From Candidatus Bathyarchaeia archaeon (GTDB lineage Archaea > Thermoproteota > Bathyarchaeia > TCS64): a DNA stretch of 64,000 bases. Both the position numbers and the translations under genes were made by a program. Positions 6,688 to 25,309 of the stretch are shown here, piece after piece (the stretch's first letter is position 1; each line of letters starts with the position of its first letter). The stretch spans positions 1 to 64,000 of the forward strand of contig JBEKDF010000009.1 of assembly GCA_050014495.1 (NCBI GenBank). The letters run 5' to 3'. The notes beneath the pieces are model-generated. The model saw only the letters and a program-made list of their open reading frames with translations, was not told the DNA's origin and ran no database searches.

Positions 6688-7856
6688 AGATGAGTCTTAA
6701 AATAGTCTTAACAGGTGACAACCACCTCAATTATTATAATCAGAAACTAGGATCGAGGCTTGCGAAGCGTCGAGAGTACATTGGGCGCAACTGGAGACGA
6801 ACCATAGACTACGCTATCGAGCACGAGGCCGACCTCTACCTACATACGGGTGACCTATTCGACCAGATCAGCCCGAGGAACCCTCCGCGTGCAAGCGTCG
6901 TTGAGGGTTTCAGGGAGTTGATCGACGCTGGCGTCCAGCCATTCATAATAGCTGGGAACCACGAGGCCCCCGGGAGCACGAGCGACGGCCTCTCCCCCCA
7001 CGCAGTGCTCCATGAAGCTGCCCTCGCAACCGTATTTGAGGACACTCTCAAACCCGAGCAGAAGATCATCGAAGTGAATGGTATACGGGTCTCAATCACG
7101 GGCATGTCATACAATCAGAGGCTAGGCCCCGGTAAAGATCCGCTCCAAGGTATCACACTTCCAGCCGGGGCCGATTACAACATCGCAATGCTGCACTATT
7201 CACTGGATAAGGTCACTTCAACTATCTGGGAGGAGCCAAGACTCGAGTTATCAAGCCTCGAGGAGAACCCCGCCATCCAATTGTATGCGATGGGTCACAT
7301 TCACGCGCACATTCACACAATGGTCGGCGACTCACTTGTCCTGTACCCAGGAGGCACTGAGCACTTCGACTTTGGTGAGGCTGAAAACTCCACAGGCTTC
7401 TGCGAAATCGTGTTCAGCGGTGGCAAGACCCGCTTCGAGTACATTCCGCTGGATTCCCAGCCGATGCATCAGCTGAAACAGCACACAAGCAGCTTGCCAC
7501 AAGGAAACCCAAGCGACGAACTGCTAAAACGTGTAGAGAAGGCAAGTGATCCCAATGGTCTTCTTCAACTGATCCTAGAGGGCGAGGTCCCATTCGACGA
7601 GTATACACGTATAGATTTTACATCGCTCTTCGATCGAGGCAACAGTGCCAACTTCTACTTTGAGTACGTTGACCGCATAAAGCCTCAAGTGGAGGGACTG
7701 GAGCTCGAAAAGGCCAGCGGGTTACATCCACGGGGCGAGCTCACGACCGTGGGGATGAAAGCTGTGGAGAACGCGGCTGATGAGGAGAAACAAGTTTGGG
7801 AGAGAGCGCTCGAGCTGGCTCTGGCAAGCTACGATAAATGCCAGGAAGGAACCTGA
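6681..7856 (+). CDS. mre11: Mre11/SbcD nuclease
   Basis: Phosphoesterase motifs GDNH, GDLFD, GNHE and GHIH are all present. Confidence 0.93.
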   Translation: MVKMSLKIVLTGDNHLNYYNQKLGSRLAKRREYIGRNWRRTIDYAIEHEADLYLHTGDLFDQISPRNPPRASVVEGFRELIDAGVQPFIIAGNHEAPGSTSDGLSPHAVLHEAALATVFEDTLKPEQKIIEVNGIRVSITGMSYNQRLGPGKDPLQGITLPAGADYNIAMLHYSLDKVTSTIWEEPRLELSSLEENPAIQLYAMGHIHAHIHTMVGDSLVLYPGGTEHFDFGEAENSTGFCEIVFSGGKTRFEYIPLDSQPMHQLKQHTSSLPQGNPSDELLKRVEKASDPNGLLQLILEGEVPFDEYTRIDFTSLFDRGNSANFYFEYVDRIKPQVEGLELEKASGLHPRGELTTVGMKAVENAADEEKQVWERALELALASYDKCQEGT

Positions 7857-10628: not shown

Positions 10629-11702
10629 AAATCTAAGAATGGCGATATTAGACTGGAGAAAACTCAGAAACATGGTTTCAACGACATTACAACCCTTCAT
10701 GCTAGAATTTCCCCTCCTTCAGATCCAATTATGAGTGGCACAGATGTAGTTCTAAAAGGCGTAACTGACAAAGATATTGAAGAAGCAAAAAAACTATTTC
10801 TCCGATTCTCTAGCGAGAAAACACTTGAAAAAACCCAATACGGGGAGCTACTAAGTAAAACCGGTAAAATTGGTTTAATCTATATAAATGGAGTAAAAGT
10901 AGCGGAGGAGGAGAATTTCCTCTTCAGTTATAACATTATCTCATTAACCAATGCAATAAGAAAGGCTCTAAACCGGGAAAGGACAAATGTCGGGCGCACC
11001 GCTTATTCCTCTCGTATTAAAAACATCCTACTCTCCTGCAAAGAAGGACACGTTGCAGAGTTTCTAATGAAGGACCTTCAGGAATACTCGTCGGGGTTGA
11101 TGCATGATGAATTAAAATGGATCGACATTCAGGAGCATGCAGTAAAGATTCTAAACACAGAGGGAAAACATGTCTTTCTAACCTCTTCAGAGATAATGAG
11201 CCATGGAAATATTGTAAATGAAGCAAGGGACATGGGTTATAAAATAATAACGATTCCTGAAAGTTTGAGGGATAAAATTCAGGGAGAACAGGATCTTCAC
11301 GGAAAACCAATCGTGGACGTCTTGCAGTTTAGCGACGATTACAATAAGAGTTTTAAATTCAAATTTATTGAAATATCCGAACTGAATAATAATGAAAAAC
11401 ATATTTTTGAGTTGAGAAATAAAATCTTCAACTTAATTGGAGGCCGTCCCAGACAAATTATTGATATTAAAATCTCTGAAACTATGCGGAAGAACTTCAT
11501 GGGTGAAGACGACACTGATGGTGTATGGGAAAATGGAGTGATTATTCTCAAGAGAAATCAGCTTCGATCATTAGATTATTTCTCGGCGACCCTTCTTCAC
11601 GAAACAGCGCACGCTATCAGCGGTGCTCCTGATTCTTCGCGGCTCTTTGAACAGACACTTAGTGAAATATTAGGTCGTGTGACAGTTCAAGCCCTAAAGT
11701 GA
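10629..11702 (+). pseudogene. N-terminally truncated protein with LNRER and HExxH motifs (resembles MPN635-like ATP-binding proteins)
   Basis: The frame is open upstream of ATG 10731 (KSKNGDIRLEKTQKHGFNDITTLHA...). It contains ALNRERTNVGRTAY and LLHETAH. The expected N-terminal ATPase part is missing. Confidence 0.55.
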
Positions 11703-12981: not shown

Positions 12982-12998
12982 TGGTAGCCCGGCGGAGA
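12982..12998. repeat. att site: duplicate of the tRNA-Gln 3' end (TGGTAGCCCGGCGGAGA)
   Basis: Exact 17-bp direct repeat of 25234..25250. Confidence 0.93.
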
Positions 12999-16736: not shown

Positions 16737-16880
16737 GTGAAAGCCGACTGCCCGAACTGTAGACTGAGGGCCGTCGAACCCTCGAAGAGTTGGAAGATGA
16801 CCGGGAAAGGCGGGATCGTACTCTCGACACATCAATTCCGATGTCCAACATGCGGCTTCAAGTGGCGGTCCTACTCATGA
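16737..16880 (+). CDS. 47-aa Zn-ribbon protein, Cren7-like
   Basis: Below the ORF-track cutoff. GGAGGTG SD, GTG start, reads KADCPNCRLRAVEPSKSWKMTGKGGIVLSTHQFRCPTCGFKWRSYS. Its stop overlaps ATG 16877. Confidence 0.7.
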   Translation: MKADCPNCRLRAVEPSKSWKMTGKGGIVLSTHQFRCPTCGFKWRSYS

Positions 16881-17728
16881 AGCAGGTCAGAAAAGGTGCA
16901 GTAATCAGGTCCGCCAACCTGGTCAACTCGTTCACCGACTCATACGCTGGTAAGAGCCCTTCTTCGACACAACAAGCCAGAATAGTGGCCTCCGGTTTCA
17001 CTTATTATTATGGCCATGATCCATCAAAGTGGATTCAGGACGATATTTACGGTTACCTCAAGAGAAACGAGGGGCTGAGTCGAAGCACTCAGTATTGCTA
17101 CTCGGTGATCCTTAGAGCCCTTCTCAGGTTCTGCCACAGAGAAGACCTAGCTAAACTGGTAAAACCGCCTAGAAGGATCAGCGCCGGCAAGAAATACCCC
17201 ACCGATGATCAAGTGGACAAGCTTTTCAATGTGGCCGAGACGCTCTTGGAGAAATGCGTAGTCCAGGGCCTCTCACACACGGGCGTGAGAGTCGGTGAGC
17301 TCGTCCATCTCGAGGTGGATGACTTTGATTTCGAAAAACGTCAGATAAGTATCTGCGCGAAGAATGGATGGATCCCCAAGGAGTATAAGGAGAGGAACGT
17401 GCCCGTCGACACCAAGACCGCTTCAATGGTGAAGGAGCACATAGGCGATAGAACGACAGGCAAAATCTTCCCCTACTCAGAGACTTGGATACGTAGGCTC
17501 ATCAACGATTTATCTGAGAGGGCTGGATTAAGCGAGCTCCATATCACCCCACACTCGTTACGACATGGCTACGCTGTCCACGCATTGAAACACGGTATGG
17601 ATCTCCGTAGCCTTCAGAAGATCCTCGGGCACGCCGATCTGGCCACGACAGCTACTTATCTCCAGCTGACTGACCGAGACGTCGCCGAAGCATACGACAA
17701 GGTCTTCGAGAAGGGAGCCGAGGCATGA
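16877..17728 (+). CDS. XerC/D-like tyrosine recombinase
   Basis: TGVRVGEL, HSLRH, LGHADLATTATY. Start placed at the ATGA overlap (16877) rather than 16790. Confidence 0.92.
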   Translation: MKQVRKGAVIRSANLVNSFTDSYAGKSPSSTQQARIVASGFTYYYGHDPSKWIQDDIYGYLKRNEGLSRSTQYCYSVILRALLRFCHREDLAKLVKPPRRISAGKKYPTDDQVDKLFNVAETLLEKCVVQGLSHTGVRVGELVHLEVDDFDFEKRQISICAKNGWIPKEYKERNVPVDTKTASMVKEHIGDRTTGKIFPYSETWIRRLINDLSERAGLSELHITPHSLRHGYAVHALKHGMDLRSLQKILGHADLATTATYLQLTDRDVAEAYDKVFEKGAEA

Positions 17729-17892
17729 TCTGCCCGAACTGTGACAAGCGGGCTCAGAGATCAGCCTTCTACACAGGAAACAAGGATCCTGCAGGCGATG
17801 AGGTCTACAAATGCTCCCGGTGCGGCCACAGCTTCACCGAGAACGACCAAATAGAATGTAGCCGAGTCAAAAAACCGGAGGCATCACAATGA
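17725..17892 (+). CDS. 55-aa zinc-finger protein
   Basis: MICPNCDK...YKCSRCGHSF. ATGA overlaps with both neighbours. Not in the ORF track. Confidence 0.75.
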   Translation: MICPNCDKRAQRSAFYTGNKDPAGDEVYKCSRCGHSFTENDQIECSRVKKPEASQ

Positions 17893-18404
17893 GCGACGGC
17901 GGTAAGATAGTTACCAAGGCCGATGATGTCGTGAAGTGGATCCAGGAAGGTGAGACCTGGATTAAGCGAGGCCGAGAGATGTTCAGCGCTGGCTTCACGT
18001 CTAAGACCACTGAAGCGGCACCAAGAGCAGCCGCCTTCGACGAGACGCTTCTAAACGGCGTCGAATGGATGCCAGGCAAGTACGGCGAGTATGTCTTCTC
18101 GCAAGACTACAAGGATCTCTATATCGCGGTCCAGGACGCCGGCGGCAAGGTCGATATGGGCGACTTCACCGTTAGCATCGGCAAAAACGAGGACTACATC
18201 AACAAGAACCCGAAGAAACGAGCCGACCCAGCCCCAGCGCCCACGCAGGGCGGCGGCTACCAGGGCCAGATGAAGGACCCCGAGGGGGCTCCCACCCAGG
18301 CGCAGCTCAGCTTCCTCGGGAAGCTGGGAGTCGCCGGCTTCAGCGGCACCAAGAAGCAGGCCAGCGACCTCATCGAAGAAAAGCTGAGTGAGAAGAGAAA
18401 ATGA
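17889..18404 (+). CDS. hypothetical protein (C-terminal PTxxQ..L...TKxQASxLI module)
   Basis: Coupled operon position. As I recall, the C-terminal motif is common in viral DNA-binding/annealing proteins. Confidence 0.6.
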   Translation: MSDGGKIVTKADDVVKWIQEGETWIKRGREMFSAGFTSKTTEAAPRAAAFDETLLNGVEWMPGKYGEYVFSQDYKDLYIAVQDAGGKVDMGDFTVSIGKNEDYINKNPKKRADPAPAPTQGGGYQGQMKDPEGAPTQAQLSFLGKLGVAGFSGTKKQASDLIEEKLSEKRK

Positions 18405-18949
18405 AAACCGTCCTCGTCACCAACAAGGAGTTCGAGACCATCCCAGGCTATACTACCGGGGTCGATGTCGCCACCTGGAAGGGCAAGATAGACACCATAC
18501 TCTACCGACTCAAGGACAACCCTAAGGTCCAGGTGGTCCGCAAGGCCTGGCTCACCGAGGACGACTCCGAGATGCTCCTCCTCGAGCTCAAGGTCATCGT
18601 CGGCAGAAGCAACGTCCAGCGCCACCTCAGCTTCAAGCTTGAGCCCGTCATGATCCAGCGCGAGGTCCTCGACAAGCACCGGAACAGGCACCTAGTCACC
18701 GAGGATAAGACCAGCTGGAGGCTCTTCTACGAGCTCCTCAGCCAGAAGCTCGCAGCAGCCCGCCTAGGCCTCACTGAGATCCAGTACGAATTCATGCCCT
18801 ACATCAGCATGAGCCTACCCGGAGGCGGCCAGGGCACCCTTGCCGATATCCTTGACATCACCCTCGAGGCCGACAGGCTCAGCAGCCTAGGCCAGATCGA
18901 GGACAAGCGCGAACGCAGGGTAGTAGACGCGGAGGTGATGATCAAATGA
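18401..18949 (+). CDS. hypothetical protein
   Basis: ATGA-coupled ORF within the element operon. Confidence 0.7.
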   Translation: MKTVLVTNKEFETIPGYTTGVDVATWKGKIDTILYRLKDNPKVQVVRKAWLTEDDSEMLLLELKVIVGRSNVQRHLSFKLEPVMIQREVLDKHRNRHLVTEDKTSWRLFYELLSQKLAAARLGLTEIQYEFMPYISMSLPGGGQGTLADILDITLEADRLSSLGQIEDKRERRVVDAEVMIK

Positions 18950-19161
18950 AGATGATCACGCATCCCAAGCCTGATCTGGTGCTCGAGATGACCGCCGAGG
19001 AGGCCACGGCCTTCATTGACGATAGTAAGGGTCTCGTGGTTAGGCAGGCGGCGAAGAACGGCGCGGCCATAACATGGCTACTGACTCAGGGCCACTGGAT
19101 CATGATAAACCCGCCGAGTAAAGAGGAGGAACAATCACGTCACGGACAAGAGGATCCTTAG
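18946..19161 (+). CDS. hypothetical protein
   Basis: GGAGGTGA SD and ATGA overlap. Confidence 0.55.
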   Translation: MKMITHPKPDLVLEMTAEEATAFIDDSKGLVVRQAAKNGAAITWLLTQGHWIMINPPSKEEEQSRHGQEDP

Positions 19162-19360
19162 AAGTCTTCAGCTCCGGCTACGCCAGGGCCCAGATCAAGA
19201 TTACGGCAGACAGAGAGAAGTCCGTAGCCATCGTCCGCGAGATGATCCTCAGCCGACTAACCGTCAACTATAGTGTAAGTCCGATCAAGGAGAGTCAGCC
19301 GCCTGGGCCACGAGGCTTTCACTGCTTTATCAATCTTGAGCTGCCGGAGGCCTCACGGCC

Positions 19361-21277
19361 ATGACTGGCGAAGAAAAAAACATTTCATTTCTTACTCCCA
19401 CCCCCGGCGCATATAGTTTAGAGGAGGCCAAGCAGCGAGGCTTAGCCTGGAAGGAAGCCCAGAAGCGGGCCACGGAGCTCATGGACCTAGACTTCGTGAA
19501 GCGGGTTATCAGTGAGACCGTTAAGCACGACGAGGAGGCGAAGCTGATCACCTTCTTCGCTATGGTCCTGAACTACACCTATGAGGACCAGCAAGGGATA
19601 ATATTCAGCGCCCCTAGCTCCACGGGTAAAAGCTGGATAGCACTTGAGATAGCCAAATTCTTCCCAAAGGAGGACGTTGACAGCAAGGGCTACACCTCAC
19701 GCCGAGCCTTCTTCCATATGAATCAGGACCTACAGACTGCAGACGGAAAACCCCTCGAGAAAAGGGCCGACTACCTTAGGCAGAAAATGGAGGGTTGGGA
19801 GGGCTCAAACCCCAAGCCCCACGCCCCCGACACAAGCGACAAGACACCCGAGGCTGTCAGACTCAGGAAAGTCGCCTCAGACTGGAAGGAAAAGCGCAAA
19901 GAGGAGTACAGGAAACATCGAGACACCTACGACGCCCTAGATAAGGTCTACATCGTCGACCTCGCCCAGAGGATCTTAATATGGAAGGACATGCCCGACG
20001 ACGGGGTCCTTCAACCCCTACGCAGCCTCATGAGCCATGACGAGAAGGAGCTAATCGCGGATATTACGGATAAGTCACAGTCGGGCTCAAACCTCACGAA
20101 GAGGGTTAAGCTCCTAGGATACCCCACCGTGATCTTCTGTCAAGCAGGCTTCAGCCCCGACGATCAGGAGCGCACACGCAACTTTATTGTAAGCCCGGAC
20201 ATGGATCAGGAGAAGCTCAGCGACAGCCTAGGCCTCCAAGCCGAGACCCTCAGAAACAGGCCCGGTTTCCAGCAGAGACTCGATACACAGATAGAGCGAA
20301 TGGCGCTTAAGGCGAGAATCGAGGCAATCAAGGCCGAGAATATTCAGCAAATAATGATAGAGGAGTCTGACATAAACAACGCCCTCAAATGGTATAAACG
20401 GGGCAAAGATGGCAGACCCCGCGACCTCACCCCCAGAGACCAGCGGGACTGGCCTCGCCTAATCGCCATGGCGAAGGGCCACGCCCTCTTCAACTTATTT
20501 CAGAGGAAACGGACCCCCGAAGGCTACGTTATCGCTACGACCGAGGACCTCGAGGTCGCGAAGACTATTCTCGGCAGGATCGTGGAAGCGAACCGCCTCG
20601 GGATGCCTCCATACGTCTATGATTGGTGGGCTGAGGACCTGAGTAAAACATTCGAGGCCCAGCCCTACGGATTAACCAAAAACGAGTTTAACGCCAGCTA
20701 CTTCGGCAGATTCAAGACTAGACTCGGCGACAAGGCACGCAAGAACTTGATCAAGTCCCTCGAGGAGACGGGCCTGATTGAGGAGCGCACCGACCCCGAC
20801 GACAAGAGGACCACCAAACTATATGCAACGGGGGTAGGAGTAAGAAATGAAATAAATATTTCTCAGGAGAGCCCAAAACTCCAGGATTTTATTGGTAAGT
20901 CAGGTACACTCTTACAGGAAGATACGCCAGCGTCGCCCGGACTGAAGCCAGAGGAGAAGATAGAGAGGGCTCCGGAGCTCTCCGGGGGTCCCTCGCCTGA
21001 AAAGGATGGGCTAAAGGAACAGCCACCCGAGCCAGAGGGTCCCGAGGAAGTCGTCCCCGTCACCGTTGAGGCCGAGGACCCTAAGCCCCGCGTCACCCTT
21101 GAGGAGAGGTTTAGGCAGATTACGAAGATCTTCGAGGAATCCCACAACCAGGCCAGCACCGACTACATCGCGTCGAGGCTCGGTGTCACCTCAGAGGAGA
21201 TGGAGAAGCTACTGAGGGCTATGACGCCTCATGTCTTCACGGTCCCAGGCTCGGACCTATGGAGGTTCAGCCCGTGA
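19361..21277 (+). CDS. P-loop ATPase with C-terminal wHTH domains, putative replication helicase/initiator
   Basis: Walker A-like SAPSSTGKS, LTPRDQRD helix, wHTH-like LEETGLIEERTDPDDKR, acidic/Pro linker, second HTH-like tail. Confidence 0.7.
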   Translation: MTGEEKNISFLTPTPGAYSLEEAKQRGLAWKEAQKRATELMDLDFVKRVISETVKHDEEAKLITFFAMVLNYTYEDQQGIIFSAPSSTGKSWIALEIAKFFPKEDVDSKGYTSRRAFFHMNQDLQTADGKPLEKRADYLRQKMEGWEGSNPKPHAPDTSDKTPEAVRLRKVASDWKEKRKEEYRKHRDTYDALDKVYIVDLAQRILIWKDMPDDGVLQPLRSLMSHDEKELIADITDKSQSGSNLTKRVKLLGYPTVIFCQAGFSPDDQERTRNFIVSPDMDQEKLSDSLGLQAETLRNRPGFQQRLDTQIERMALKARIEAIKAENIQQIMIEESDINNALKWYKRGKDGRPRDLTPRDQRDWPRLIAMAKGHALFNLFQRKRTPEGYVIATTEDLEVAKTILGRIVEANRLGMPPYVYDWWAEDLSKTFEAQPYGLTKNEFNASYFGRFKTRLGDKARKNLIKSLEETGLIEERTDPDDKRTTKLYATGVGVRNEINISQESPKLQDFIGKSGTLLQEDTPASPGLKPEEKIERAPELSGGPSPEKDGLKEQPPEPEGPEEVVPVTVEAEDPKPRVTLEERFRQITKIFEESHNQASTDYIASRLGVTSEEMEKLLRAMTPHVFTVPGSDLWRFSP

Positions 21278-21456
21278 CTCAGGTTAATTGCTTCATGGTG
21301 GATTGTCGGCACCGATTCAGGGAAGTATGCCAGAAGCCCGCGGTCGAGGTGGATAAGTCGGGGCGCTGCGTCAGCTTCGACCGCATACCGGGCTACCTCA
21401 TGGGGCATGGGTACGACGCCAGATTCAAGAAGTCGGAGGGAGGAACCGCGCCGTGA
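21259..21456 (+). CDS. small Cys-rich protein
   Basis: C-x3-C-x6-C-x12-C pattern. The start is probably GTG 21274, overlapping the upstream stop. Confidence 0.55.
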   Translation: MEVQPVTQVNCFMVDCRHRFREVCQKPAVEVDKSGRCVSFDRIPGYLMGHGYDARFKKSEGGTAP

Positions 21457-21644
21457 CTGAAAGGCTGTTCAGGTTCTTGGTTGAGAGGTCCATATGGAAG
21501 CGTGGCCACGTCCTGGCCCTGAAAACTGAGTGGAGAAAGATCTATTGCTCAGATATCGAGTCGACCAAGCACTACGCTGAGGAACTGAGGACATACCACG
21601 GCTTCAGGATCCTAAGCGAGGTCATGGAGGCGTCCGAGAAATGA
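21453..21644 (+). CDS. hypothetical protein
   Basis: SD plus overlapping start/stop coupling. Confidence 0.55.
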   Translation: MTERLFRFLVERSIWKRGHVLALKTEWRKIYCSDIESTKHYAEELRTYHGFRILSEVMEASEK

Positions 21645-21937
21645 GCACCATCCGCGTCGGAAAATGGGACGTCCCCGCCGACCTCTTCAACGATTACATC
21701 CGCTTTTCGATAATGGCGAATACCTACCTCGACCCCGAGGCCGAGATCCCGACTCACTCGGATTATGAGCGGGCGCTGAGGTGGAAACTATGCGTCCAAG
21801 AAGTGATGAGGGTCCACCGGGCGATATGCGCCGCGATCGGGGTGCCTTACTCAGAGAACACCGACGACGAGTTTTACATGGCTTTCCACCGAGAGGTCAA
21901 TAAACAAACTAAGCTCAAGGGAGGCACTGCATATTGA
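21641..21937 (+). CDS. hypothetical protein
   Basis: ATGA-coupled ORF. Confidence 0.6.
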   Translation: MSTIRVGKWDVPADLFNDYIRFSIMANTYLDPEAEIPTHSDYERALRWKLCVQEVMRVHRAICAAIGVPYSENTDDEFYMAFHREVNKQTKLKGGTAY

Positions 21938-22671
21938 GCCTCGTCGATGAGCACCTCGCCCAACGCGAGGAGAACCGCAGAACCCGAGTCCCCGGCGTCG
22001 TCTACGTCACCGATATCGTCAAGCCCTGCCAGCGCGGCGCCTACTACACCGCCATACTCAACAAGGCCGCCTCCCCCGAATCCCTCCGCATCTTCGAGGC
22101 CGGAAACCTAATCGAGGACTGGTGGATCAACGCCGTCCTCAGTGGCCGCAAGGACCTCCATGTAGTCGCCACCCAGCTCCCGGCCCGTTACGTTGATGAG
22201 GCCGGCGCCTTCGAGATCCACGGCCGAGTCGACGCCCTAATCCAGCATGGCGACCGAGCCCTCGTGGTCCACGAGGTCAAAAGCCAGAGAACCGCTTCCT
22301 GGCTCCGCGAACCGAAGCCAGAGCATGTTGAGCAGCTCCAGTTCTACCTCGCCGCCCTCGGCCTCGACTGGGGCCAAGTCGACTACCTCGACAAGACCAT
22401 CCTCCTCCAGGGCCGCGACGTGAAGGCCCGACCAGGCAAAGGCGGAACCGTCGACAAGAGCTTCCCCGTCCAGCGCGATACACGGGTCTTCGCGGAGCTC
22501 GTCCGCCGCGGCCGCCTCCTCGCCGAGGCCATCAGGGCCGGGAAACCACCCGCGAAGGCTGAGTGCTGGATGTGTCAAGGATATTGTGACTACGCGGCTG
22601 AATGCCGCGCCGAGGATGGTGAAGGGCCGCTAAATGCGGGACTCAACGTCGTCGAGGAGACATCGCCTTGA
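21934..22671 (+). CDS. Cas4-like PD-(D/E)xK exonuclease with Fe-S cysteines (no CRISPR array seen in window)
   Basis: N-terminal PCQR, GRVD..HEVKS..QLQFY, C-terminal CWMCQGYCDYAAEC. Confidence 0.85.
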   Translation: MSLVDEHLAQREENRRTRVPGVVYVTDIVKPCQRGAYYTAILNKAASPESLRIFEAGNLIEDWWINAVLSGRKDLHVVATQLPARYVDEAGAFEIHGRVDALIQHGDRALVVHEVKSQRTASWLREPKPEHVEQLQFYLAALGLDWGQVDYLDKTILLQGRDVKARPGKGGTVDKSFPVQRDTRVFAELVRRGRLLAEAIRAGKPPAKAECWMCQGYCDYAAECRAEDGEGPLNAGLNVVEETSP

Positions 22672-22814
22672 CGAAGAAGAACCGCCGCGCGCGCGTCCCC
22701 AGACCACTACCTCCGATCATCAAGCCGGGCTGCCCGAAGTGCGCCGAGAACAAGGCTGCGGGCCTCACTCACTGCCTCAGGTGCGGCGCAGACCTCAAAA
22801 GGTGGATGCCATGA
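22668..22814 (+). CDS. 48-aa zinc-ribbon protein
   Basis: TTG start overlapping the Cas4-like stop. CPKC...HCLRCG. Stop overlaps ATG 22811. Confidence 0.65.
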   Translation: MTKKNRRARVPRPLPPIIKPGCPKCAENKAAGLTHCLRCGADLKRWMP

Positions 22815-23002
22815 AAATCATCGATGTCATCGTGCCCGAGATCGAGGGTCAACTCGCTAAAGAGCTGCACAAATCACCAACGATGATCCGATTCTACGCC
22901 TGTAGAATGACCCTTGAACTTGAACTTGGTCGGCAGATGACACCTGAGGAGCAACACGAACTCGCAAAATATGTCTATGAGATCCACAGGAGGGCCCGCT
23001 GA
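22811..23002 (+). CDS. hypothetical protein
   Basis: MKIIDVIVPE..., the 3' part of the ORF-track call 22634..23002. Confidence 0.55.
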   Translation: MKIIDVIVPEIEGQLAKELHKSPTMIRFYACRMTLELELGRQMTPEEQHELAKYVYEIHRRAR

Positions 23003-23574: not shown

Positions 23575-23880
23575 ATGATGAAACTCCTGTTAGATGAGAA
23601 CTGCTCGAACTTGGGACCAGCCCTCAAGGAGTTGGGTTGGAGCGTCTACACCGTTCCTGAGGTGATAGACCGGCCAGCTGGCTGTAAGAGCGTTACGGAT
23701 GACAGGATCCTGGAGTTCGCTAAAGCCGAGAAGTACGTGATCATCACGAAGGACCAGGGACTCAAGGACCAATGCCAGAATGCTGAAGTCCCCTATGTCG
23801 GTTTAGGAGGTGTCGAGGAGGAGGCCGGTATCGTCGACCGGAAACTCAGGAAGGTAGTAGCCTGGAAGAGGTACCTCTAG
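23575..23880 (+). CDS. DUF5615/Mut7-C-type PIN-like protein
   Basis: MKLLLDEN...DDRILEFA...IITKD. Confidence 0.8.
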   Translation: MMKLLLDENCSNLGPALKELGWSVYTVPEVIDRPAGCKSVTDDRILEFAKAEKYVIITKDQGLKDQCQNAEVPYVGLGGVEEEAGIVDRKLRKVVAWKRYL

Positions 23881-23881
23881 A

Positions 23882-25267
23882 ATGGCCGAGTCCAAACAAT
23901 TCAAAGAGATCACACTTACCCACAGCTCCCGAGGCAGGAAGCTGAGTAGGCCAATCACATTCAGGATCATAATTGCTAGGAGCCCTGGAGAAAAGGCTGT
24001 CCAGGACTACGTGATCGAGTCTTTATCCATAAAAATGCCGAGTCTGATCCCCTTCGTCTTCGAGAATAGCACCGTGGTGAATCGAGCCAAGGATCTTAAA
24101 TTCCACTACATTGGGAGCCCCGCGACACTCTACCAGGACGTATATGGAGTCTATCGATTCAGTAAGTGGATAGGCCAGTCACCTGATGAGCTCTTCAAGG
24201 GATGCCTGAACAGGAAAGGTAAGCCTGATCCATCTAGACTAGACGAGCTCAAGAGACGTCTCGACGACTTCATGTGTGATCTCAAGGCGGGAAATACCGC
24301 TCCGAGTACCGTGGCCAACTACGTGAAGGGAGTAAAAGGCCTCTTCAAGTCGAACGGTGTCCCTCTTGAATTACCTTTCAGGATCAGTCGTAAGAAAGCG
24401 GAGCCGGATCATTCTCCGACCCCTGAGGAGCTTCAGCAAGTTCTTGACATCGCTGCTCCAAGAGAGAGGGCGATCGTGAGCTTCCTAGCTCTAACTGGAG
24501 TCCGGGAGGGAACCCTTGTGAGACTCAAGTATCGACACGTTCAGCAAGATCTCGAGGCCAGAGTTTCACCCATCCACATTCACGTTGAGGTCGATATCAC
24601 AAAGGGCGAGTATGGCGCCTTCGATACCTTCCTGGCCGGTGAGGGTGTCGAGTACCTGAAGGCCTACCTTCAATCCAGGAGGGCAGGAACAGAGAAGATC
24701 CCATCCGAGGAGATCATGCCAGACTCGCCCCTCTTCAGCTGGGCCTCATGCGGAAGGCCTCTCACAGAGTCAAGGATCCACGCCCTGGTGAGTCGCCTAT
24801 ACCTGAGGGCCGGGATCATCTCAAAGGCCGATAAAGGTAGAAGGTACAGGGTCAGGCCTCACAGCCTGAGGAAGTACTTCAGGACCCAGCTCGCAGCTCT
24901 ATCAATCCCCACCGATCACGTTGAGTACATGATGGGCCACGTGATGAGCACCTACAATGACGTTCAGAGCCTGGGTATCGAGAAGCTAAGAAATGAGTAC
25001 GCCACAGCTGGACTCAGCATCAGGCCGAGGACCAGAGCCAGTAAGATCGAGATGGTCAAGTCGATGCTTGAGTCCATAGGGGTGTCACCTGAGGAGATGA
25101 GAGCAGCTCTAGTTAAGCCAAACAGGACCGTGATCGGCCTGGAGGATGGAGAGGCAGTTCAGCTTAAGGCTCTCCAGGGTGTCATGAAGAGAGCTCTCCT
25201 TAAGGAACTTGGTATAAATTCATGGCTAGAGAGTGGTAGCCCGGCGGAGATTCGAACTCCGGTCTAA
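23882..25267 (+). CDS. tyrosine integrase, 3' end reading through att into the tRNA antisense
   Basis: TGVREGTL, HSLRKYF, MMGH..STY. Overlaps 25234..25267. Confidence 0.93.
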   Translation: MAESKQFKEITLTHSSRGRKLSRPITFRIIIARSPGEKAVQDYVIESLSIKMPSLIPFVFENSTVVNRAKDLKFHYIGSPATLYQDVYGVYRFSKWIGQSPDELFKGCLNRKGKPDPSRLDELKRRLDDFMCDLKAGNTAPSTVANYVKGVKGLFKSNGVPLELPFRISRKKAEPDHSPTPEELQQVLDIAAPRERAIVSFLALTGVREGTLVRLKYRHVQQDLEARVSPIHIHVEVDITKGEYGAFDTFLAGEGVEYLKAYLQSRRAGTEKIPSEEIMPDSPLFSWASCGRPLTESRIHALVSRLYLRAGIISKADKGRRYRVRPHSLRKYFRTQLAALSIPTDHVEYMMGHVMSTYNDVQSLGIEKLRNEYATAGLSIRPRTRASKIEMVKSMLESIGVSPEEMRAALVKPNRTVIGLEDGEAVQLKALQGVMKRALLKELGINSWLESGSPAEIRTPV

Positions 25268-25309
25268 GGGTCCAAAGCCCTCCATCCTTGTCCACTAGAC
25301 GACCGGGCT
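25234..25309 (-). tRNA. tRNA-Gln(TTG), CCA encoded, no intron
   Basis: Reverse complement AGCCCGGTCGTCTAGTGGACAAGGATGGAGGGCT-TTG-GACCCTTAGACCGGAGTTCGAATCTCCGCCGGGCTACCA folds as a cloverleaf. Confidence 0.97.

Follow-up and report, generated by a model that had tools for sequence, protein, structure and literature searches.

Here we analyse a stretch of 64,000 nucleotides (nt) of Candidatus Bathyarchaeia archaeon DNA (GenBank assembly GCA_050014495.1, contig JBEKDF010000009.1, positions 1 to 64,000), referred to throughout as the window. Within a putative integrated element it carries a gene for an MCM-like AAA+ ATPase with a winged helix, and an inverted repeat lies inside this gene, with one arm at each end of the region that encodes the catalytic core. 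The segment ATTTCATTTCTTACTCCCACCCCCGGCGCATATAGTTT occupies 19382-19419, occurs once on the + strand and has its reverse complement at 20816-20853, where 35 of 38 positions agree (3 mismatches); two matches were reached in none of 100 dinucleotide-preserving shuffles made for the 19382-19419 pair. The repeat widens to 53-nt arms, 19372-19424 and 20811-20863, which are 83% complementary, are separated by 1386 nt and form the top-scoring repeat of window positions 1-30000. In + strand reading, the A/T-rich outer flank of the left arm is followed by a C-run, then by a short variable centre and ATATAGTTT; the right arm repeats this site on the other strand. Sites were scored with a position matrix of 30 columns, built from the 44 arms of 22 loci. 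The gene and its arms are laid out as follows.

19361..21277, + strand: open reading frame (ORF) of 638 amino acids encoding the MCM-like AAA+ ATPase with winged helix; both arms lie inside it
19372..19424, + strand: left arm, with its core at 19382-19419 (codons 8-20) and its matrix site at 19390-19419 (35.3 bits)
19436..20830, + strand: coding region of the ATPase-winged-helix core, enclosed by the arms and delimited by the matches of relatives and by structural alignment with MCM
20811..20863, - strand: right arm, with its core at 20816-20853 (codons 486-498) and its matrix site at 20816-20845 (28.3 bits)

An earlier note, made from the letters of the window alone, had reported this repeat, and its description holds. 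The 35-of-38 match was recovered by sequence comparison, the arms do have the C5/G5 run and AT-rich outer ends that it claimed, and the placement that it gave, with one copy in the first 20 codons and the other where the first winged helix-turn-helix ends and the linker begins, agrees with the codon positions and with an AlphaFold model of the protein.

The pair recurs in related genes. We collected 38 loci on metagenome contigs plus 8 in species genomes, and searched the 5' end of each gene against the reverse complement of the region around residue 495, ungapped and then gapped. Gapped local alignment placed the pair above the locus's own null windows in 25 loci, and L004 was missed by the alignment solely through a 1-nt indel. 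With the matrix, exactly one + site near the core start and one - site at the core end were found in 27 of 37 complete loci (L004-L023, L025, L028-L031, L042 and L043), whose proteins share 40-62% identity with the query; the window comes in addition to these. L004, L028, L029 and L030 stood outside the training set of the matrix, and 6 truncated loci each carry the single arm expected of them. L044 (41% identity) has a full left site, and on the right it keeps just the half made of the A/T-tract and the C-block. A generic inverted-repeat search of more distant relatives that took in L035-L038, L045-L049 and L055-L079 returned nothing above the nulls except in L054, which is described below. 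L080 shows, by eye, a degenerate resemblance only. A tree of 33 cores places the standard-pair loci in two groups, of 21 and 4 rows.

The arms also mark the places where the architecture of the encoded proteins changes. The ORF stays open across both arms in 22 of 24 loci, and the other two, L007 and L043, are broken elsewhere. In 14 of the 24 the left arm begins 4-40 nt past the ORF start, and in the remaining 10 it lies 796-1076 nt inside an ORF that is fused to a Prim-Pol domain; in the 22 intact loci the ORF runs on for 117-424 nt beyond the right arm. What lies to the left of the arms is either no extension, a Prim-Pol domain or a zinc ribbon, and to the right are several unrelated C-terminal tails, the change falling exactly at the arms. 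L020 is unfused within a clade of Prim-Pol fusions (L011, L015-L019, L021-L023), with an ORF start 4 nt ahead of the left arm; therefore, primase fusion and fission happened exactly at that arm. The C-terminal helical domain of the window protein is common to the L013/L014 clade and is not shared with its closest core relatives.

We then asked how the codons within the arms compare with those of the rest of the gene, using a codon alignment of 21 genes (L004, L007, L012 and L043 were left out) in which 10 of 210 pairs with at least 75% identity were dropped and 200 were used. At identical residues, codon identity is 0.44 over the whole gene, and it rises to 0.72 at residues 1-10, 0.71 at residues 11-20, 0.57 at residues 481-490 and 0.66 at residues 491-500. 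Seven-codon windows at residues 487-502 reach a synonymous identity of 0.71-0.97, and the best 25 such windows all lie at residues 4-21 or 487-502. Matched for amino acid, the arms have a codon identity of 0.71 versus the 0.44 predicted from the rest of the gene. The arms also change together within a locus: within-locus arm identity is 0.746, compared with 0.621 between the left arm of one locus and the right arm of another, and the observed mean was reached in 0 of 10000 shuffles. Because kin share both arms, this test is conservative rather than liberal.

The consensus of the arms, read along one strand, has an A/T tract followed by CT(A/C)CNCCC(A/C)C(C/T)C, then 2-4 variable bases and a short G run; after one further base comes ATATA, mostly with (G)TTT behind it. 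ATATA is unchanged in 43-44 of the 44 arms and the C-block is conserved, whereas the A/T-rich flank is kept in composition only, with 45% of its cells mismatched. Clade-specific versions of the site, for example a C5-N4-G5 dyad or a long C run, occur in both arms of each clade. Such a shared consensus points to sequence-specific recognition rather than mere pairing. On this comparative evidence, the repeat is best described as two copies of one composite DNA site of approximately 30-45 bp, and codon usage and covariation show these sites to be under purifying selection as DNA.

L054 provides a natural flip of this arrangement. Its contig, 1954 nt long and from genome G386, carries the gene on the + strand; the left site (554-587) reads on the - strand and the right one (1887-1920) on the + strand, with 33 of 34 positions matching. 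The ORF is open, and the peptides have changed places as well, with an N-terminal tail like the usual right-arm peptide (...EIYSPSVGG...) and a tail after the wing like the usual left-arm peptide (...LPPTEGEYIS...). This layout cannot arise by inversion between the arms: once the core has been flipped, an inverted pair looks as it did before. It could result if an ancestor carried a local inverted pair at both ends and copies were then lost differentially. At 1880-1954 of the same contig, the right site and its flank form a tandem repeat with a period near 45 nt that runs into the contig end, and this may be either an iteron-like duplication or an effect of the assembly end.

Local pairs of the kind that such an ancestor would have carried are found in several relatives. 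A third copy, on the + strand about 45 nt past the right arm, is present in L013 (4222-4325) and likewise in L014 and L043, a similar pair stands just 3' of the core in L071 (2364-2483), and L045 has a local - and + pair at its 5' end. The third copies, some 45-60 nt after the right arm and on the opposite strand, form with it a compact inverted pair with a partly A/T-rich spacer in the region that codes for the linker. In L043, a 300-nt direct repeat of 98% identity (7390-7689 and 11197-11496) duplicates the core end, the right arm and the third copy 3.8 kb downstream; with its broken ATPase gene, this locus looks like a rearrangement or the insertion of another element. The constant feature is one site at each core end, the two mutually inverted, and either orientation is possible. 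The earlier note had placed the constraint on the DNA rather than on the protein, which is borne out by the synonymous freeze limited to the arms, by their covariation and by the swapped peptides of L054. It had also allowed for a one-off duplication with no counterpart in homologs, and this is ruled out by the pairs in 27 of 37 complete loci together with the covariation of their arms.

The site is private to the ATPase gene within the host assembly. Across the whole 3.1-Mb assembly, only 4 matrix matches reach 16 bits or more; two of them are the arms, and the other two (22.6 and 16.1 bits) stand alone and do not exceed chance level. The 22.6-bit match (G000 contig C24, 14960-14989) has no homologous gene nearby, and chance alone would give about 1 such match per 6.2 million positions. 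A host-wide motif, serving a host initiator or a common promoter element, was considered and rejected, the 3.1-Mb assembly holding no further sites.

The protein itself escapes the usual annotation. Searches of the 638 residues against Pfam and PHROG gave no match, and a sequence profile search of the PDB gave only a weak match to a winged helix of the SlyA/MarR type (E 0.068). Relatives are nevertheless plentiful: a word-seeded search found 349 at E <= 0.001 among 8000 scored candidates, and an exhaustive HMMER search of representatives at 50% identity found 1097. They come from Bathyarchaeota/Bathyarchaeia assemblies and metagenomes, and many have Prim-Pol, PriCT, Toprim or CHC2 zinc-finger domains ahead of the homologous part. 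A family member (E <= 1e-30) was present in 33 of 401 sampled genomes of the class, and a scan of viral contigs with alignment found 0 relatives among 50 pattern matches. PF27228 (MTBMA_p00010_2nd) is a precomputed label on relatives, covering 10-96% of members in atlas clusters; it was not reproduced by the local Pfam, which apparently lacks that model and matched neither the protein nor the labelled relative P0061. A separate upstream primase was also sought and rejected, as the ORFs at 17889-18404 and 18401-18949 are unlike the Prim-Pol part of P0016 (best E 1.2 and 0.084, respectively).

Structure prediction was more informative. The AlphaFold model, made from 19 aligned sequences, has a mean predicted local distance difference test score (pLDDT) of 70.8 and a predicted template modelling score of 0.61. 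The best 50 PDB matches listed by Foldseek are all MCM subunits, with E values from 2.3e-4, and VIA-align places model residues ~24-490 on the MCM AAA+ domain and winged helix with Z 10.4-12.2 and 229-330 residues aligned, all 50 entries shown again being MCM. A Walker A P-loop, SSTGKS, stands at residues 86-91 and is nearly invariant in the 19 aligned relatives. The N-terminal OB-fold/zinc domain of cellular MCM was not found in the model, and since only ~25 residues precede the region aligned with the MCM AAA+ domain, the protein is, by its predicted fold, MCM-like rather than a cellular MCM. "Replication ATPase" would be a fair name for it, resting on the fold and on the fusion partners.

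The predicted layout is a core at ~26-490, a low-confidence linker at 492-576 and a small C-terminal helical domain at 580-621; the matches of relatives begin near residue 30-45 and finish near 484-500. The wing hairpin of the winged helix is formed in the model by strands 472-478 and 481-489. The right arm overlaps the last of these strands and the start of the linker, and pLDDT is <50 at residues 1-17 and 492-576, with values of 33-45 for the left-arm residues. Both arms are therefore within, or at the margin of, the low-confidence segments to either side of the folded core. By the model, the arms fall in flexible tails, and this is why the protein tolerates the sites.

The wider neighbourhood of the gene is that of a mobile element, with the following features.

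12982..12998: 17-nt direct repeat of the tRNA-Gln 3' end, putative left attachment site; exact 17-mer identical to 25234-25250
16790..17728, + strand: second tyrosine recombinase, called the 16877 recombinase in the earlier note (Pfam Phage_integrase, E 6.3e-29)
21934-22671: Cas4-like PD-(D/E)XK nuclease, downstream of the ATPase gene in the same element
23575-23880: PIN-like (DUF5615) protein, downstream of the ATPase gene in the same element
23882..25267, + strand: tyrosine integrase, its 3' end overlapping the tRNA gene (Pfam Phage_integrase, E 3.7e-12; PHROG integrase)
25234..25309, - strand: tRNA-Gln with anticodon TTG (ARAGORN), of which 25234-25250, the 3' end, forms the putative right attachment site

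The 17-mer is the longest match of the tRNA region to the rest of the window, and the two repeats would bound a putative integrated element of ~12.3 kb that contains the ATPase gene. Many small ORFs with no family matches are also found in the element. The segment 13000-16800 has a G+C content of 0.26-0.5, being far more AT-rich than 17000-23000 (0.52-0.62). Given its two tyrosine recombinase genes, the region may consist of two elements in tandem.

What, then, are the sites for? The comparative signal is strong, and it is from this signal that we infer a function. Tentatively, and with about as much doubt as confidence, we favour paired binding sites for the element's own initiator that together form an origin embedded in the gene. 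A sequence-specific DNA-binding protein of the element would recognise the sites, the most plausible candidate being the winged helix that is encoded beside the right arm. The sites would then direct the assembly of two oppositely oriented helicase complexes and would serve as the replication origin of the element, or as an essential cis part of it. With the origin inside the initiator gene, site and specificity domain would be inherited together. On an excised circle, an inverted pair would give converging or diverging loading whichever arc intervenes, and such arc-independent loading would make the standard and the flipped layouts equivalent. A more ambitious form of this idea, possible in our view but doubtful, is a self-contained replicon cassette: an MCM-like helicase-initiator with a bipartite origin in its linker codons, on which two opposed rings would be loaded without ORC. 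The protein would be recruited to each site by way of the neighbouring winged helix, loading would be quasi-symmetric, and origin and specificity domain would travel as a unit through fusions to different primases and tails. An intragenic origin had been one of the two options of the earlier note. In its favour are the retention of the pair in relatives, its restriction to this gene within the host assembly, its place beside the winged-helix part and the compact inverted pair, with a 45-nt spacer, that a third copy forms in some relatives; the origin role itself is one that we infer.

Several observations weigh against an origin within the gene. The pair was found in 0 of 9 complete loci at 31-39% identity, and the marginal half-site matches of L055-L057 reach just 7-10 bits, at the 95th-98th percentile of background, so that we leave their orientation uninterpreted; given this absence in distant members, the pair is not a general requirement of the ATPase family. 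The counts are overstated as well, since there are close kin and near-copies among the loci (L006/L007, L011/L012, L013/L014, L016/L018/L019 and L029-L031), and independent lineages therefore number fewer than 27. As to the window, 1.4 kb of coding DNA with 54% G+C lies between the sites, with no A/T-rich unwinding element of the kind known from classical archaeal and viral origins. There are just two sites rather than an iteron array, and the third copy of some relatives is missing.

The evidence for a protein-binding site would serve equally well if the arms were autoregulatory operators or roadblocks, where a repressor of the element, either the ATPase itself or a small partner, binds both core ends and loops the DNA or blocks RNA polymerase, setting the level of the replication protein in the manner of intragenic auxiliary operators. 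The position of the left arm in 14 of 24 loci, near the promoter of what would be a leaderless or short-leader gene, suits this role. In the 10 loci with a Prim-Pol fusion, however, the arm lies deep in the ORF and far from any start, and a promoter-proximal operator role therefore cannot be the conserved one. We consider operators unlikely, with the reservation that they are compatible with origin function and the two are not exclusive. The 19 sequencing runs listed as containing the stretch include 0 RNA runs. Transcription enters differently if ATATA is read as a TATA box: symmetric promoters in the arms would then produce, for copy-number control, a shortened sense RNA of the core together with an antisense RNA from the right arm. 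ATATA is indeed invariant and has purine-rich or A/T-rich neighbours in all arms, and a Met (M41 in the window protein) is conserved in most relatives about 20 codons past the left arm. This Met is missing, however, in P0014, P0019 and P0020, the flip in L054 would reverse both transcripts, and the strongly conserved 12-bp C-block and the G run are not known as features of archaeal promoters. We regard such promoters as improbable. Nor do we give much credit to pairing of the arms in mRNA or single-stranded DNA, as a helix of 38-53 bp closing a 1.4-kb loop that would limit translation or mark processing. Both arms lie in one ORF and hence in one transcript, they co-vary, and even the double flip of L054 preserves their complementarity. 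Yet the 121 within-locus mismatches in core columns would give G.U pairs in 33 cases on + strand RNA and 42 on - strand RNA, and the 212 mismatches over all columns in 41 and 51, respectively, so that the transcribed strand is not favoured. In 22 of 22 loci such a helix would have a mismatched centre, a helix needs no consensus of sequence across clades, and the third copies and local pairs fit sites rather than one helix. Single arms are not hairpins either: in the four strands of the window arms, 146-199 of 200 shuffles fold at least as well, and among twelve strands folded only L022 shows a 5-bp stem (z-score -0.65 to -0.98). A hairpin or ssi-type site was rejected, as the arms fold no better than shuffles.

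The other option of the earlier note was an invertible switch, in which the replication gene is switched as the second tyrosine recombinase flips the 1.4-kb core, going off and on with its orientation. An inverted pair of ~38 bp would lend itself to this, the element has two tyrosine recombinase genes, as have L008 and L011, and partner arms share exact runs of 7-20 nt, so that a crossover is possible elsewhere in the arms. Logan contigs from 4 of the 19 runs, at a depth of 5-10 with rare variants dropped and with two runs that may be the source of the assembly, cross both arm junctions in the reference orientation only in 4 of 4 runs, with no joints or loose ends, and no inverted junction was found in them. 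The inverted state occurs in 0 of 24 loci, with the ORF open through both arms in the 22 already mentioned, and no minus-strand ORF lies between the arms. Tyrosine recombinases require an identical overlap region, and the central 8 nt are unequal between partner arms in 22 of 22 loci, which thus counts against inversion. The window arms have no internal Xer-type dyad, and one clade has just a 5-bp dyad with a 4-nt spacer; the dif/Xer-type layout is one of 11-bp arms and a 6-bp spacer, as given in PMC2958812. Recombinases are also not consistently paired with the repeat: fetched DNA of up to 6 kb per side has no Pfam recombinase match in L042, L043, L019, L014 or L017, and one integrase each in L004, L013, L015, L016 and L025. 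Orientation, ORFs, arm centres and recombinase distribution thus leave the switch extremely improbable. It is scarcely more appealing to see in the arms a functionless repeat, either a relic of gene conversion or a boundary at which related elements recombine N- and C-terminal modules, and we hold this to be very unlikely. The switches of domain architecture exactly at the arms are what a boundary would produce, as is a C-terminal domain common to the window and the L013/L014 clade and not present in the nearest core relatives of the window, but swapping at linkers is to be expected anyway. Gene conversion alone, moreover, explains neither a consensus across clades at 40-60% protein identity nor the arm-limited synonymous freeze and the third copies.

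Cis-acting sites in coding sequence are rarely caught by annotation, and the comparative evidence here is unusually clean, with a freeze limited to two 40-bp patches, concerted change of the two copies and a natural flip with a peptide swap. If the sites do form an origin, this would be the first candidate pair of origin and initiator for the integrative elements of Bathyarchaeia, a group with neither cultures nor genetic tools; it would show an MCM-type helicase locating its loading sites by itself, and it would explain the movement of the core as a unit between primase fusions. A replicon cassette, if real, would represent a new form of origin organisation and would supply uncultured Bathyarchaeia with a minimal replicon ready for use. 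If the sites are regulatory, this would be a new case of intragenic operators bracketing a gene. In both cases the arms provide a short, testable DNA probe and a protein domain to try against it.

Origins or operators inside coding sequence are already known. In the open-access literature that we searched, no description was found of an inverted site pair that brackets the catalytic core of a helicase gene, is conserved, co-varies and occurs in either orientation, nor did we find such an arrangement in open-access texts on replication genes of archaeal plasmids and viruses, the pME2001 origin or P4 crr. Among systems with comparable parts, archaeal origin recognition box (ORB) pairs and the quasi-symmetric ORC sites of yeast are inverted and load two opposed MCM rings, ORB having a G-string. 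The present pair resembles them in having two mutually inverted sites with a G/C run that are associated with an MCM-type helicase. ORB elements, however, are bound by host Orc1/Cdc6, flank a short A/T-rich unwinding element and are intergenic, whereas the spacer here is 1.4 kb of coding sequence, the site is absent elsewhere in the host assembly, and a Pfam scan of the element found no Orc1-type gene. The window does not have an ORB-type layout; a compact pair with a spacer of ~45 nt occurs only in L013, L014, L043 and L071. Invertible segments such as the phage Mu G segment and the shufflons are found in both orientations in populations, have alternative ORFs or switchable promoters, and lie next to a dedicated invertase. 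Like intragenic invertons, the present gene has inverted repeats of 26-40 bp in coding sequence, and none of their other features was seen here.

Other mobile elements offer further parallels. RSF1010 ssiA and ssiB are two inverted repeats of ~40 nt on opposite strands at which the plasmid's own primase starts (PMC8567376); these are folded single-strand hairpins in a compact oriV, whereas the arms here have no hairpin propensity and stand 1.4 kb apart. The origin of pRN1 lies directly 3' of ORF904, its gene for a primase-helicase-winged-helix protein (PMC4234260 and PMC3869888), and phage P4 alpha binds origin repeats through a winged helix (cited in PMC4234260). The ATPase resembles ORF904 and P4 alpha in being a multidomain replication protein of a small mobile element with a winged helix, which in those systems binds the origin. 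In pRN1 a 100-nt stem-loop that lies outside the ORF serves as origin, whereas the sites here are part of the reading frame and show no hairpin folding; ORF904 and P4 alpha belong to the superfamily-3 helicases, whereas the present ATPase is MCM-like by its predicted fold. P4 further depends on crr, a second cis region at the opposite side of the alpha operon; a search of open-access text found no paper with this term.

The closest precedents for position are origins that lie within the genes of their initiators. Ori-lambda, within gene O, comprises four 18-bp iterons and an adjacent 38-bp AT-rich stretch (PMC3349717), and the oriV of repABC plasmids lies within repC, where silent coding mutations abolish replication (PMC3155836). 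As in these, a candidate cis sequence for replication lies within the coding sequence of a replication protein and is inherited along with it, and here it is conserved as DNA. The four direct iterons of lambda are clustered in ~130 bp, whereas the window has two inverted copies 1.4 kb apart and its relatives at most three; an array of the lambda-O type, with at least 3 direct iterons and an adjacent A/T-rich unwinding stretch, was not found. In repC the corresponding sequence is an A+T-rich region with no repeats, whereas here inverted copies stand in the linker codons at both core ends, in either orientation. Lambda O and repC, finally, are initiators with no helicase of their own, whereas here the candidate origin would be carried by the gene of an MCM-like helicase.

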